In this document: positions 11,063-37,732 of the stretch, in pieces
How the letters are laid out: every line of letters starts with the position of its first letter
Numbering within the stretch: position 1 is the stretch's first letter
Origin: an uncultured Thermoplasmata archaeon
GTDB taxonomy: Archaea > Thermoplasmatota > Thermoplasmata > SG8-5
Direction of reading: 5' to 3'
Assembly (NCBI GenBank): GCA_964354755.1
Contig: CAYHBA010000005.1
Location: forward strand, 13,014 to 77,013
Length of the DNA: 64,000 nt
Notes under the pieces: model-generated
The model's database searches: none
What the model saw: only the letters and a program-made list of their open reading frames with translations
Told to the model about the DNA's origin: nothing
Program-made: the position numbers and the translations under genes

Positions 11063-11338
11063 AGGTTCACGTCCTGTTCAATGGTGAACTGTCGCAATCC
11101 CTATTCGCGGCTCGGTATTAAAGGGTTGAGGGGGGGTGGGCGAAACTACTCAAAGGATGAGAGAGACGGTTCCGTGCGAACCACGCAAGAGTTTGAAATA
11201 TGGATCCCCGGCCTTCAGTTCTTTTAATGCTATCATCAGCCGGGGCATCGAGGGATTCTGCACACGCAGTGAAAAGCGCACTCGCTCGGAAGATATAGTA
11301 AAACCCCGCCCTGCCAGGCGGGGCATGCTGCTGGCAAA

Positions 11339-11947
11339 ATGCCTGTTGGCAGATTGCCGAATGCGCTGGTGCCGAAAGGATTATTACAGCGCATTCGCAT
11401 ATTGCATTGTCCGGAGGTTGGCGTGTCCCCGATAGTCCACGGAATGATTGCTTGGCTTGTGGCAGTATTATTTGCCAAGCGGATAAATGACCGTCGGTTC
11501 ATCACAGTTGCTGGCGTTGTCCCCGACATTGACGGCATTTTCATCCTGTTGAGCAATTCCTCGTATTCGGAATTCCATCACACCTTCGGGCATTCTTTCG
11601 TGTTCGGGATTCTTGTAGCAGTCACTGTTTACGCGCTTTCTACTGACCGAGTGAAAGCATTCTTCGGGGCGCTGACAGCATTCTCGCTGCACCTTGCTGC
11701 CGATATCGTGGGGACCAATTGGTCTGTGCCAATTTTCTACCCGGTCTCTGATTTTTCAATGACCGCGGGATTGGACCATTTCCAAATATTCACCATCATT
11801 TCGGTTGTTTTCTTCGTCTCCCTGGCCCTCATAATTATCTTGATGTTCCGCAAAGGCATTTCCCCAATTGAGTTTATATCGGAGAGGCTGGACAGGTATC
11901 TTGTGGAGAAGGTTTTTCCGATGAGGATTGAGAAAAATAAAGGTTGA
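11339..11947 (+). CDS. Membrane-bound metal-dependent hydrolase (YdjM/DUF457-like)
   Basis: 202 aa, multi-TM, with conserved His/Asp (VHGMIAWL..., VVPDIDGIF, HHTFGHS). The start is uncertain and an internal ATG is possible. Confidence 0.55.
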   Translation: MPVGRLPNALVPKGLLQRIRILHCPEVGVSPIVHGMIAWLVAVLFAKRINDRRFITVAGVVPDIDGIFILLSNSSYSEFHHTFGHSFVFGILVAVTVYALSTDRVKAFFGALTAFSLHLAADIVGTNWSVPIFYPVSDFSMTAGLDHFQIFTIISVVFFVSLALIIILMFRKGISPIEFISERLDRYLVEKVFPMRIEKNKG

Positions 11948-18223: not shown

Positions 18224-19270
18224 ATGAACAAATGCCCGACATGTTCGAATCCCCTGAGTTATGTGCAGCAATATCAGCAGTGGTACTGCCACACATGCCA
18301 GGCCTATAAGGTCCCTGCTGTGGCTCCTGCGCAGCCGCAACATCAGCAGCAACCGGCGCAGCCCTATGCACAACCGCAGCAGCAACACCAATATCAACAG
18401 CCCGCACAACAGCAAAACCAGGGCCAATACCAGCAGCCCCATCAGGCTCCGACCCAACAGGCATACCAGCAGCAGCCTGCGCAGCAGCAATATCAACAGC
18501 CTGCACAGCAGTCGCAATACCAGGCACAACCCCAGTACGAACAGCCGGTCCAGCAACCCCTGCAGCAGCAATACGAACCGCAGCCCCAACCCATGGTCAG
18601 CGCTGACCTAGTCTGCCGGATAGAGCACTCCCCATCATTCTCAGTCCTGATATTCAGCCTGAAGCCTGGGCAGAGCGTTCTCACCGAAAAAGGGGCCATG
18701 ATGTACATGCACAACACGATAGACATCGAGACGCACGGCCGGAAGGGCGGTCTTACCACTTCCATCCTGGGCGGTGAATCCTTCTTCGTGAACACATACA
18801 CGGCCGCGCGCGGTCCAGGCGAGCTTGCCCTGGTTGGCCCGACAATGGGCGACATAAAGGCGTTGGATGTCGCATACAGGCCTATGATACTTCAGAGCGG
18901 CGCATTCCTTGCATCCCACACAACGGTAGAACTGGACACCAAGTGGCAGGGCCTCAAGGGCTTCCTCTCGGAACGGGACTTCGTCATGCTGCGGGCCTCG
19001 GGCCAGGGCAAAGTTTGGGTCACAAGCTTCGGAGCCATAATGGAGAAGAACCTGCAGCCCGGGGAGGTATTATCTGTCGACACTGGTCATCTGGTCGCAT
19101 TCCCGGACACCCTGCAGTTCTCGGTTCGCCGGGTGGGCGGCTGGAAGTCCACGCTGCTCAGCGGCGAAGGCCTCGTGACGGATTTGGTCGGGCCGGGGAA
19201 GATACTGCTCCAGACGCGGACGATACCGGCGTTCGCTGTGTCGCTGATACCGTATCTGCCTCAGAAATAG
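18224..19270 (+). CDS. Zinc-ribbon, Q/P-rich low-complexity region, then an AIM24/DUF124 (TIGR00266) domain protein
   Basis: 348 aa. MNKCPTCSNPLSY..WYCHTCQ forms a zinc ribbon. An ~110-aa Q/P/A/Y-rich region follows (QQQPAQPYAQPQQQHQYQQ...). The C-terminal ~210 aa match the AIM24 fold family. A TATA-like box (tctatatatt) and an SD (ggag) lie upstream. Confidence 0.7.
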   Translation: MNKCPTCSNPLSYVQQYQQWYCHTCQAYKVPAVAPAQPQHQQQPAQPYAQPQQQHQYQQPAQQQNQGQYQQPHQAPTQQAYQQQPAQQQYQQPAQQSQYQAQPQYEQPVQQPLQQQYEPQPQPMVSADLVCRIEHSPSFSVLIFSLKPGQSVLTEKGAMMYMHNTIDIETHGRKGGLTTSILGGESFFVNTYTAARGPGELALVGPTMGDIKALDVAYRPMILQSGAFLASHTTVELDTKWQGLKGFLSERDFVMLRASGQGKVWVTSFGAIMEKNLQPGEVLSVDTGHLVAFPDTLQFSVRRVGGWKSTLLSGEGLVTDLVGPGKILLQTRTIPAFAVSLIPYLPQK

Positions 19271-19304
19271 GCGAATTCGGTTCATAGATTTATAGGTGCA
19301 GCAT

Positions 19305-19329
19305 GCCCCGCCTGTTAGGGCGGGGTTTT
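19305..19329 (+). terminator. GC hairpin plus T4 tract downstream of the AIM24-domain gene (intrinsic-terminator-like)
   Basis: gccccgcctgttagggcggggtttt. A near-identical 35-bp copy lies inverted at 11296-11330. Confidence 0.5.
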
Positions 19330-19390
19330 GACAGCATTCTGGAACCGAGTGCGAATTACCCAAACATCTGGGGTATTTTGATGCAAAAAG

Positions 19391-19723
19391 CCCCGGGTGT
19401 AAGCCCGGGGTTGCATTTGGGAAGCTCTTGCAAAGGGGCGATTCTCTCTATCTTCCGCGGAAACACAGGCGAAGGGTCGGCGCCAAAGCTTCGGGACCGG
19501 GTTGTGTGCCGATTTAAACACCCCCCCGCCCTCACAGGCGAGGCTTCCTAAGGATGAGCTCAATCGTCACCAACCCGGTTCGCCCAACCGGGTCACGACC
19601 CCGGCCTTGACGCCGAATTCAACAATTCGGCTAACTCGCATTGATGCTCATTGAATGCTGGGGCGCTACAATGCTCGTCCAGTCGAGGCATGATGGCGAA
19701 GGCTGGAACTGAACACAGGGATG
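19391..19723 (+). ncRNA. Candidate structured non-coding RNA, copy A (homolog of the inverted copy at 36115-36308)
   Basis: No plausible ORF. Hairpin ccccgggtgtaagcccgggg, conserved blocks gggaccgggttgtgtgcc and ttcctaaggatgagctca.tcgtcaccaacccggtt, and a 3' block tcgaggcatgatggcgaaggctggaactgaa with RUGAUGR/CUGA (C/D-box-like) spacing. T tracts follow at 19761-19775. Confidence 0.35.
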
Positions 19724-19866
19724 GTTGACCGGTGCCGTGGTGAGGGTTATGGTTTGGCGCTATTTTCGGCATTTTGGGGTACACTTGTAATCAGCAAATC
19801 GAATTATTAGCAACTTTTAATAAGATAATGGCATTCGCGCTACTGCTTTCAGCGATATAAGATAAC

Positions 19867-19939
19867 GCCACTGTAGCTCAGTCGGTGGAGCAGCTGATTT
19901 GTAATCAGCAGGCCGGGAGTTCAAATCTCTCCAGTGGCT
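19867..19939 (+). tRNA. tRNA-Thr (anticodon TGT); CCA not encoded
   Basis: Cloverleaf drawn by hand. Acceptor gccactg/cagtggc, D stem gctc/gagc, anticodon stem gctga/tcagc with loop tttgtaa (anticodon TGT), variable loop aggcc, T stem gggag/ctctc with loop ttcaaat, discriminator T. Confidence 0.9.
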
Positions 19940-20036: not shown

Positions 20037-20257
20037 TAATATTTTTCCAGCCACATACCGTGCCCTTACAGGCACGGCTTGGATTGATTTATGCAATTGG
20101 TGTTTGTCACTTGCTAATAAAATAAAACAAGTACCCCGGTCTCTGCGCCGAATTGTGTGCAATTCGGCTTGCTCGCATCGATGCTAATAAACTGAAGCGG
20201 AGCTACGATGCTCGTCCACCCGGGGCATGCTGCATTTAGTTTCGCCCACCTCTCATC

Positions 20258-35847: not shown

Positions 35848-35909
35848 GGTTGCACCGAAGGCTAATCCCTTTCGGAATATTTAATACTAATATTCTCTAT
35901 ATTGTAATC

Positions 35910-36101
35910 ATGGACTGCAAAAAAGAACAGAATCTGAAACACTGCAACTGCACCTACACATGCGGCAAGAAGGGCATGTGCTGCGAATGCCTCCGGTACC
36001 ACCTGGAGATGCAGCAGCTCCCAGCGTGCTGCTTCCCTCCCGAGGCTGAGAAGACCTACGACAGAAGCTTCGAAAAATTTGCGGAAGCCTGGAACCTCTA
36101 A
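35910..36101 (+). CDS. Small cysteine-rich protein (9 Cys in 63 aa)
   Basis: ATG at 35910; the track start at 35841 is a TTG. MDCKKEQNLKHCNCTYTCGKKGMCCECLRYHLEMQQLPACCFP resembles a conserved C-x-C/CC-x-C small-protein family (I recall it as DUF6485-like). Confidence 0.5.
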   Translation: MDCKKEQNLKHCNCTYTCGKKGMCCECLRYHLEMQQLPACCFPPEAEKTYDRSFEKFAEAWNL

Positions 36102-36114
36102 ATCAAACGGAAAA

Positions 36115-36308
36115 ATTTTTTCATCCATCCCTCCATTCAGTTCCAGCCACCGCCATCATGCCTCGCCTGAATGGGTACATTTTGATATCTAGAGGGCGGG
36201 GTTGTGACCCGGTTTCCGGAACCGGGTTGGTGACGACTGAGCTCATCCTTAGGAAACCCCGGGTGTAAGCCCGGGGAGGTGTCTAAACCGGCACACAACC
36301 CGGTCCCA
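36115..36308 (-). ncRNA. Candidate structured non-coding RNA, copy B (inverted homolog of 19391-19723)
   Basis: The reverse complement aligns block-by-block with copy A: gggaccgggttgtgtgcc, hairpin ccccggg.ttacacccgggg, ttcctaaggatgagctca(g/a)tcgtcaccaacccggtt, and gaggcatgatggcg.tggctggaactgaa. Hairpin loops differ with stems preserved. A T tract (minus strand) follows at ~36110-36122. Confidence 0.35.
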
Positions 36309-36361
36309 GGGCTATGGCACCGGCCAACTCCCTCTCGGAACCTGAGTCCCGATACCTAAAA

Positions 36362-37732
36362 TTACCGACCAATTCTTTTTATCGCAATATCCGCCGCTCT
36401 CGAGAGCAGGTCGAAGACATCGCTCACGGGCGGGCAGTACGCGAACTCCATGTCCTGAAGGTCATGGACGGTCATTCCTTTAGAGGCCATGATTCCGATG
36501 ACATTTATTCTCCAGGCAGCGCCTTCCTTTCCCATGGCCTGGCCTCCGAGGATTTTGCCTGTGTCCCCATCGACAATCAGCCTTAGTGACAGTTCTGAAT
36601 TGTTGGCTATGTAATGCGGCTTTATCGCGCCTTTTACTGAAACCGCTTTCACGTTCGCATGACCGGCCTTCTGCGCGGCCTCCAGGTTCAGCCCTGTGGC
36701 GGATATTTCTATATCGCCCACAAGGGATACGAAGGTGTTGTAGAAGCCCTTGTACTTCGCGTCCCCGCCGGCGGCATTTATACCAGCGATGGCGCCCTGC
36801 CTGTAAGCAGTCGTGGCTAGAAGGGCGGGACCTTTCGAGCCGTCAAGCCTTGAGAACGATTCTGCGCAATCCCCCACCGCGAAAACGCCAGGAACGTTCG
36901 TTTCCATGCGCTCGTTCGTGACGAATCCGTTCTTGTTTGCGATTATGCCGTTGCCTTCTGCCAAATATGTCCGGGCTTTCATCCCTACTGCCATCACGAC
37001 AATGTCGCAGGGGATTACCTGGCCCGCTATAGTCACGGACTCGACGCAGTCTGTTCCGTTCACGCTGTCTATGCCCTTTCCGAAGTACTGGTGTATCCCA
37101 AGTTCAGCAAGCTTGTTGATGACCAACTCACCCATCTCCGGGTCGAAGATATCCGCCATGACAGGCGGGGTCCTCTTTGTAACATGGACATCCAGACCCA
37201 GCACCTTCAGGGCTGCCGCGATCTCCAATCCTGTCGCACCGCCCCCGACCACGCATGCCGCTTTCTTCTTCGAGCTCAAGGCAGCCTCCCGCAGCGCCAT
37301 CGCATTGGACGGGTTGGTGCAGAAATGAACGCCTTTTCCCTCAAGCTCCTTCGCCCCCGGTATCGGGAGGTTTATCGGTTCCGCGCCTGTGGCTAATACC
37401 AGGGAGTCCCAAGCAATCTCCGAAACATCACCGGTCTTCAGGTCTTTTACAGTAAGCTTCTTTTCAGGGACGTCTATGGACTGGACCTCGTGCGAAAGTA
37501 GTTTTTTAAGTCTCCCGACCTCCGGGATAGAATACTGGAGATCGGCGAAGTCTTTGACCACGCCCTCTATGGCATAGGGCAGCCCGCAGGGGCTGAACTG
37601 GTCGAAGTCCCTCTTCTCGATTATCGTGATGTTCGCCTTGCGGTTCGTACCCGAGGCATACTTGGAAGCGTAGAGGCCCCCGATACCCAGGCCTATGATT
37701 ACCACATTCATTTCATTGTCCGCCGACGGCAT
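36362..37732 (-). CDS. FAD-dependent pyridine nucleotide-disulfide oxidoreductase, NADH oxidase / CoA-disulfide reductase family
   Basis: 456 aa. N-terminal GxGxxG (IIGLGIGG), active-site Cys in SPCGLPY (Nox/CoADR single-Cys type), a second NAD-binding GGGATG, and a C-terminal dimerisation domain. Confidence 0.8.
   Translation of the reverse strand: MPSADNEMNVVIIGLGIGGLYASKYASGTNRKANITIIEKRDFDQFSPCGLPYAIEGVVKDFADLQYSIPEVGRLKKLLSHEVQSIDVPEKKLTVKDLKTGDVSEIAWDSLVLATGAEPINLPIPGAKELEGKGVHFCTNPSNAMALREAALSSKKKAACVVGGGATGLEIAAALKVLGLDVHVTKRTPPVMADIFDPEMGELVINKLAELGIHQYFGKGIDSVNGTDCVESVTIAGQVIPCDIVVMAVGMKARTYLAEGNGIIANKNGFVTNERMETNVPGVFAVGDCAESFSRLDGSKGPALLATTAYRQGAIAGINAAGGDAKYKGFYNTFVSLVGDIEISATGLNLEAAQKAGHANVKAVSVKGAIKPHYIANNSELSLRLIVDGDTGKILGGQAMGKEGAAWRINVIGIMASKGMTVHDLQDMEFAYCPPVSDVFDLLSRAADIAIKRIGR

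Follow-up and report, generated by a model that had tools for sequence, protein, structure and literature searches.

In a window of archaeal DNA, i.e., the whole 64-kb stretch that was analysed, two homologous non-coding stretches are found in opposite orientation, at positions 19476-19736 (copy A) and 36121-36328 (copy B). This raises the question of their nature. The original prediction, made from the letters of the window, saw in them a conserved RNA with motifs of the box C/D type; a family of repeats would be another answer. In the explanation that we favor, with moderate confidence, both stretches belong, as intact copies, to a lineage-specific family of modular, structured intergenic repeats of Methanomassiliicoccales-type archaea, which would be non-autonomous, similar in kind to REP, REPIN, and PATE elements, and probably once mobile. 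Methanomassiliicoccales-type archaea are poorly studied methanogens of gut and sediment. A structured repeat or non-coding RNA family such as this one, unannotated and absent from Rfam, is new for them; the finding, although real, is of an ordinary kind.

Organization of the Two Intact Copies

Each of two conserved blocks, of 36 and 30 nt, has exactly two matches in the 64-kb window, one on either strand; 100 shuffles yielded no match. Pairwise alignment of copies A and B places the blocks in the same order, with dissimilar stretches between them, and self-BLAST aligns the two copies at 83% identity over 133 nt (E 2e-34) and at 86% identity over 49 nt. Block counts, self-BLAST, and alignment uphold the view of two homologous regions in opposite orientation. 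The borders had to be revised, as copy A, first placed at 19391-19723, corresponds in its intact form to 19476-19736, and copy B to 36121-36328. We also agree that the two copies do not bound a single 16.6-kb element as its terminal inverted repeats.

Copy A is flanked by an AIM24-family gene (18224-19270, + strand) and by the tRNA gene that had already been noticed beside it. The latter encodes tRNA-Thr(UGU) (19867-19939) and is the sole match at the Rfam gathering threshold in the whole window. Copy B is located between two convergent genes, encoding a DUF6485 protein (ending at 36101, + strand) and a pyridine-nucleotide disulfide oxidoreductase (Pyr_redox; 36362-37732, − strand). The DUF6485 gene (35910-36101, + strand), which converges with the oxidoreductase gene, is small and cysteine-rich. 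An 88-aa ORF on the opposite strand (35862-36128), apparently located after copy B, was considered and rejected as no real gene.

The intact unit has a size of ~200-260 nt and is described here on its active strand, which is the − strand for copy A and the + strand for copy B. It starts with the flank motif GGCACCGGYCAACC, followed by the 8-bp GC hairpin Pb, the hairpin P2, and a 27-nt core containing P3. Then come P4, a second 8-bp GC hairpin with a G-U-N-A tetraloop, the hairpin P5, and the flank motif again. In copy A, the flank motif GGCACCGGUCAACC, read from the sequence at 19736-19723, opens the unit. The Pb stem (19688-19681 with 19606-19599) and P2 (ACCCGGUU / AACCGGGU; 19572-19594) precede the near-invariant core UGGUGACGAUUGAGCUCAUCCUUAGGAA (19545-19571), which is identical in most copies and holds P3 (GGUGAC / G-UCAUCC). 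P4 (19524-19543), with its 8-bp GC stem and GUGA tetraloop, is of the type called "RE-like" hairpin, and the 3′ flank motif was again read from the sequence (19485-19476). The corresponding parts of copy B are Pb (36161-36201), P2 (36206-36228), the core with P3 (36229-36256), P4 (36257-36276), P5 (36279-36294), and the 3′ flank motif GGCACCGGCCAAC (36316-36328).

The 14-nt motif GGCACCGGYCAACC forms, on the active strand, a direct repeat at both ends of most copies (e.g., 19723-19736, 36316-36328, L020, and L022). A related CGGCAC..CAACC occurs inside the element, in P5 and the adjoining junction. From complementarity, a pseudoknot is possible between CCAACC and the GGUUGG of the P2/P3 junction (flank motif GGCACCGGCCAACC).

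The loop of Pb falls into three length classes of 3-4, 24-25, and 74 nt. The longest corresponds to an optional module, M4, which occupies the Pb loop of copy A (19607-19680, − strand). M4 folds as a three-way junction, with a helix GCAUUG/CAAUGC and a hairpin GCCGAAUU/AAUUCGGC; it is carried by copy A, by L016, and by the decayed copy D described below, in part by L018, and it shows one compensatory change from U-A to C-G. Copy B has a Pb loop of 25 nt. Loops of a constant 24-25 nt are present in copy B (winB; 36169-36193), L006, L013, L018, L022, and L024. These six loops are AT-rich and have diverged from one another, whereas the 8-bp GC stem that closes them is invariant.

Conserved Helices and Choice of the Strand

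The structure had first been read on the + strand of copy A and the − strand of copy B. Folding of seven copies with RNAalifold yields −48.5 kcal/mol for the opposite strand, versus −35.4 kcal/mol for the strand first proposed. A covariance model, a check that the original prediction had itself suggested, was made on the former strand. This model, R1, was used to search relatives and recovers every copy with 77-159 bits; its matches to copies A and B span 19479-19621 on the − strand (153.9 bits) and 36179-36321 on the + strand (159.3 bits). In the 12-sequence model alignment, standard pairs make up 95.5% of 465 pair cells, a proportion reached in 0 of 500 column shuffles, the slid controls giving 32-57%. 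P2 is paired in 99% of its cells and P4 in 100%. On the strand first proposed, the same helices are only ~74% paired, with the caveat that the structure itself was derived on the favored strand. The model helices contain 106 G.U cells versus 7 A.C cells and, because of this asymmetry, the conserved structure is assigned to the strand opposite to the one first chosen. In principle, P2, P3, P4, and Pb could form on either strand; they clearly favor the active strand.

Each of these helices varies in a manner that keeps its pairing. In P2, two compensatory pairs are seen in L016 (A-U to G-C and C-G to U-A). P3 still pairs in L025 and L022 despite G.U/A-U changes, and in L022 also despite the replacement of its loop. 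P4, with the sequence CCUCGCCY-GUGA/GUAA-RGGCGGGG, has compensatory changes at two pairs, and its conserved U.G would read C.A on the + strand of copy A. Pb, located 5′ of the R1 model, forms a stem of 8 bp in all copies, with a clean G-C/C-G switch and 20 G.U cells versus 1 A.C cell.

The conservation of pairing between copies A and B had been an argument for a structured RNA from the start. It holds for the hairpin located between blocks 1 and 2, the stems of which differ (CCUCGCC/GGCGGGG in A versus CCCCGGG/CCCGGGG in B). It does not hold in the same way for aacccggtt-loop-aaccgggt, where the loop alone differs between A and B and compensation is seen only in the homolog L016.

P1, and hence the full fold, is uncertain. 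The modeled P1 helix would pair GGGGUYG with CRRYYCC, four G residues being common to Pb. Support is poor for the outer four pairs, which are part of Pb, and the inner seven vary by transitions only and overlap Pb. A long-range helix on the strand first proposed, pairing GGGACCGGG with CCCGGUUCC, was rejected: it would compete with P2, which covaries, and more of its pairs are broken.

Occurrence in Other Archaea

Intact and edge-truncated copies taken together, 13 distinct copies are available, from UBA280 (Methanomassiliicoccales) and from metagenome contigs. Among species-representative genomes, exact-pattern scanning yielded L006 and L008, both in Methanomassiliicoccales archaeon UBA280, the remaining matches being due to chance, and a metagenome scan gave the further copies L013, L014, L016, and L018. 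Loci L020-L025 were reached by another route, in which the element was translated and a protein collection was searched for spurious ORFs called over copies. The public gene calls concerned, P0001-P0005 (loci L020-L025), are "hypothetical proteins" of 61-118 aa placed on top of the non-coding element; these spurious calls arise because its GC-rich frames are free of stop codons. BLAST against plasmids and phages gave no match. As for viral contigs, one of two pattern scans gave one chance coding match and the other nothing.

Close homologs of the oxidoreductase flanking copy B are labelled Thermoplasmata, Methanobacteriota, or Thermoplasmatota archaeon, which identifies the window as archaeal. 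According to the exact-pattern scans, the copy number is seemingly low, ~3 per Mb. Copies inside one genome are fairly diverged (~83% identity), which indicates that no recent burst occurred. Both points count against the favored explanation.

In L016, the element is located ~70 nt upstream, on the active strand, of a queD-queC pair involved in 7-deazaguanine biosynthesis (L016 1127-1756 and 453-1148). This adjacency, absent at the other copies, is probably coincidental.

Decayed Copies, Scattered Sites, and Empty Sites

Besides A and B, the window contains remnants of the same unit. Copy C (19296-19440, + strand), inverted with respect to A, was recognized by alignment to copy B, to L021, and to a homologous stretch of L008, and by R1 hairpin matches. 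It retains a Pb-type hairpin (19306-19325) and a P4-type hairpin (19391-19410), P2 and the core being eroded. The latter hairpin had been regarded as a relocated part of copy A; it belongs instead to this second, decayed, inverted copy. The inverted doublet formed by A and C has the same arrangement in L008. Copy D (20040-20250, − strand), identified by alignment and an R1 hairpin match, is located beyond tRNA-Thr as seen from A. It retains Pb with M4 (20133-20233) and a P4-like hairpin (20058-20077; CCGUGCC/GGCACGG, with compensatory changes), its core is eroded, its 3′ part is missing, and BLAST aligns 100 nt of it with M4 of copy A at 75% identity. Finally, a hairpin scan and R1 identified a solitary Pb-type hairpin, GCAGCAUG-CCCCGCC-UGGCA-GGGCGGGG-UUUU (11300-11331, − strand), which is 94% identical to 19298-19329. 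The pattern of decay is one in which the hairpins outlast the core.

The tRNA-Thr gene is bracketed by the intact copy A and the decayed copy D, both in (−) orientation, an arrangement that could stem from a hot spot for insertion beside the tRNA or from a local duplication. In addition, the core (19552-19571 / 36231-36250) holds AGCUCA(A/G)UCG, a string of the D-arm/loop of this tRNA (19873-19886). The version in copy B is AGCUCAGUCG, and on the active strand it forms a 10-nt complement to the tRNA D-arm. This match is probably due to chance.

The neighboring genes differ at all intact copies, no flanking gene is common to any two loci, and no synteny was found between copies of different genomes. 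No consistent position upstream of related genes was found either, the downstream genes being different or convergent whichever strand is considered. A riboswitch or cis-regulatory leader was ruled out on the ground that there is no consistent downstream gene.

The site of copy B was compared with its orthologs in relatives. In L026, where the flanking gene is 94% identical, the synteny of the Pyr_redox-DUF6485 site is fully conserved and the element is absent, the spacer (11360-11625) consisting of an unrelated 266-nt sequence. This site lies on the same 633-kb contig as copies L016 and L018. In L031 (flanking gene 88% identical), the spacer has just 134 nt and lacks the element; in L032 (84%), it is unrelated and lacks the element too. 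R1 gave no match in the orthologous spacers of L026, L031, and L032. Such a polymorphism at the site of copy B is as expected for an element that is mobile or often gained and lost.

The 266-nt insert of L026 contains a long-range stem, GGGCUCCCC ... GGGGAGCCC, and is unrepeated in all the sequences compared; it may be another structured insert. In L031 (2860-2993) and L032 (2135-2230), the spacer opens, right after the stop codon, with tandem-like ATCGGCATCCAAA / ATCTCCATYCAAA repeats.

Scattered, unrelated intergenic sites, decayed or solitary units, and polymorphism at an orthologous site are the marks of a dispersed, non-autonomous repeat, and all three are observed here. The original prediction had set a repeat family against its own reading. 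In essence, the stretches do belong to one, a dispersed repeat with intact, decayed, and solitary-hairpin copies and with presence/absence polymorphism. It is not a classical MITE, as there are no terminal inverted repeats, the ends being the direct repeat GGCACCGGYCAACC; comparison with the orthologous loci did not define any target-site duplication either.

Across the 13 diverged copies, the core and P2 are almost invariant while the stems covary. This conservation would also be understood if the copies were paralogous host genes for small RNAs of ~200-260 nt, transcribed from the active strand, the core serving as a protein- or RNA-binding site and gene turnover accounting for the scattered loci. 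Indeed, invariance of the 27-nt core across paralogs fits host-level selection as well as selection for mobility. A terminator-like hairpin followed by T5 downstream of copy A on the − strand, as well as AT-rich, promoter-like stretches upstream of several copies on the active strand, point in the same direction. We nevertheless regard host genes as a less likely, though live, alternative, given the decayed copies and solitary hairpins in the same window, the orthologous site that is empty in a relative with a 94% identical flanking gene, and the lack of a consistent neighbor or target among the loci. Moreover, in copy B, L006, L013, and L022, the element starts ~40 nt or less past the upstream stop codon, which leaves no room for a promoter of its own.

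Possible Relation to REP-Like Repeats, HgcC, and IS200/IS605 Transposons

The favored explanation, a family of structured intergenic repeats, invites comparison with known elements. Like REP/REPIN and the pneumococcal BOX, the element consists of hairpin units scattered in intergenic DNA, often past stop codons. It occurs as singletons and inverted doublets (cf. copies A and C, and L008), it is modular with optional inserts, and its stems show compensatory changes. It is, however, far larger (~200-260 nt), with at least five helices and an invariant single-stranded core. It also differs from REP/REPIN in its seemingly low copy number and archaeal host, and no RAYT-type transposase was identified in the ~300 kb sampled.

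As had been proposed, the copies were compared with Rfam, and no family reached the threshold for either of them. E-value scans of both copies and of four homolog loci likewise gave nothing above threshold. The recurrent best sub-threshold match, always on the active strand, was HgcC (RF00062), with 19.2 bits for copy A, 15.5 for copy B, 23.3 for L020 (E 0.0033), and 16.6 for L021; the gathering score is 50, and the alignment rests largely on one GC hairpin, the HgcC helices H1 to H3 not being aligned to helices of the element.

HgcC RNAs originate at the 3′ ends of tnpB genes of the IS1341 type (IS200/IS605), and transcripts of this type are now named TnpB omega-RNAs (PMC4615843, PMC4247193, PMC12558985). 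Their "RE-like" hairpin has an 8-bp stem and a UUCA-type (N-U-N-A) tetraloop (PMC4615843). Orphan HgcC copies outside transposases are known (PMC4247193), and palindrome-associated (PATE) derivatives are expressed as RNAs (PMC4615843, PMC4247193, PMC12558985).

The likeness to HgcC is specific in one respect: P4 and Pb of the element are 8-bp GC stems with G-U-N-A loops, to be compared with the N-U-N-A loop of HgcC, and GAGG(A/U)G follows in both. P4 has the form of the RE-like hairpin, whereas the scores stay below the gathering threshold and no copy is located at the 3′ end of a tnpB gene. Both are GC-rich structured RNAs of archaea, and HgcC copies occur inside and outside transposase genes. 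However, no tnpB or tnpA adjoins the element at any of the 13 loci, and the second similar hairpin Pb, the 27-nt invariant core, and the 14-nt direct-repeat flanks have not been described for HgcC.

All six frames of the window and of the loci lack TnpB and Zn-ribbon motifs, and neither tnpA/tnpB motifs nor a Y1 transposase motif were found in the ~300 kb of flanks sampled. Pfam analysis of the window ORFs found no TnpB or TnpA, the flanks consisting of unrelated genes, and the protein-collection search gave no TnpB C-terminus matching a translation of the element. The missing tnpB neighbor does not by itself contradict a relation to HgcC, as orphan HgcC copies are known. To our knowledge, ends made of 14-nt direct repeats are not an end architecture described for IS200/IS605 elements. 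The link to HgcC and IS200/IS605, drawn from sequence resemblance, is a lead rather than a proof.

On this basis, the following mechanism can be proposed for the structured repeats. They would have spread through single-strand recognition of their two similar GC hairpins, by analogy with the Y1 transposases of the IS200/IS605 type, which bind hairpins at the left and right ends. The element is possibly derived from the ends of an IS200/IS605 transposon, hence its resemblance to HgcC and to the omega-RNA region of TnpB. It is probably transcribed, on the active strand, and in many cases the transcript of the gene before it would extend 3′ into the element; a stable structured RNA would result.

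A narrower form of the same idea is that the copies are orphan TnpB omega-RNA scaffolds, derived from the right end of an IS200/IS605 element and used in trans by a TnpB encoded elsewhere. The recurrence of HgcC matches on the correct strand, the RE-like architecture of P4 (8-bp stem, N-U-N-A tetraloop), and the variable sequence found directly 3′ of the conserved end are what such scaffolds would show. On the other hand, no tnpB adjoins any of the 13 copies, no TnpB C-terminus was matched, and the HgcC scores (≤23 bits versus a gathering score of 50) come without alignment of H1 to H3 to helices of the element, so that this reading is unlikely in our opinion. With a similarly small probability, the intact copies would not be inert repeats and would form a domesticated, previously undescribed class of archaeal structured RNA, with several helices and the 27-nt invariant core in ~200 nt, descended from IS200/IS605 ends and still working with a protein partner in trans (e.g., as orphan omega-RNA-like guides of TnpB, or as regulators embedded in 3′-UTRs). 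If the weak link to HgcC and the IS200/IS605 right end were true, transposon ends or omega-RNA-like scaffolds would persist without a nearby nuclease gene, which would bear on the spread and domestication of RNA-guided TnpB systems and their RNAs.

Box C/D and Coding Readings

The identification of the stretches as box C/D elements did not survive. In this reading, the strand first proposed would carry an archaeal box C/D sRNA guiding 2′-O-methylation; it was suggested by AUGAUGG and CUGA, which copies A and B both carry at a spacing of 13 nt. RUGAUGA occurs in no copy, the best match being AUGAUGG, which lacks the terminal GA. The pair AUGAUGG...CUGA is found in only 4 of the 12 assessable copies, and the block that contains it is deleted in L008, L018, L020, L021, L022, and L024. 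A second C′/D′ pair, which a guide RNA of 50-70 nt would have at a spacing of about 12 nt, is absent, the structure favors the other strand, and no C/D family was matched in Rfam. The element differs from archaeal box C/D sRNAs in size, strand, and architecture, the likeness being confined to short string matches, and the reading is effectively refuted. In practical terms, the case shows how a tempting C/D-box interpretation falls once G.U asymmetry is used to assign the strand. Integron attC sites, ORB boxes of replication origins, RNase P, and SRP were considered by sequence inspection, with Rfam as the sole tool; they gave just fragmentary motif matches and were dropped.

Hardly any credence can be given to a small protein-coding gene, in which the frame reading ...PKDELNRHQPGSGNRVTTP..., open in all copies on the strand first proposed, would be translated: in 8 copies it runs through 72-183 codons without a stop, and gene callers placed ORFs (P0001 to P0005) over some of them, but indels shift the frame within conserved nucleotides (+1 in the P2 loop of L006, −1 in L014, +7 in a hairpin loop of L006), there is no conserved start or stop, and the changes in L016 keep base pairing and not the peptide. 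The view that neither region has a credible ORF is thereby confirmed by the frameshifting indels among homologs and by the few unannotated ORFs recovered in the protein search, which covered 5.8 billion proteins and returned just five short ones, with no Pfam domains. The element has already been mis-called in this way, as hypothetical ORFs, in public protein sets.
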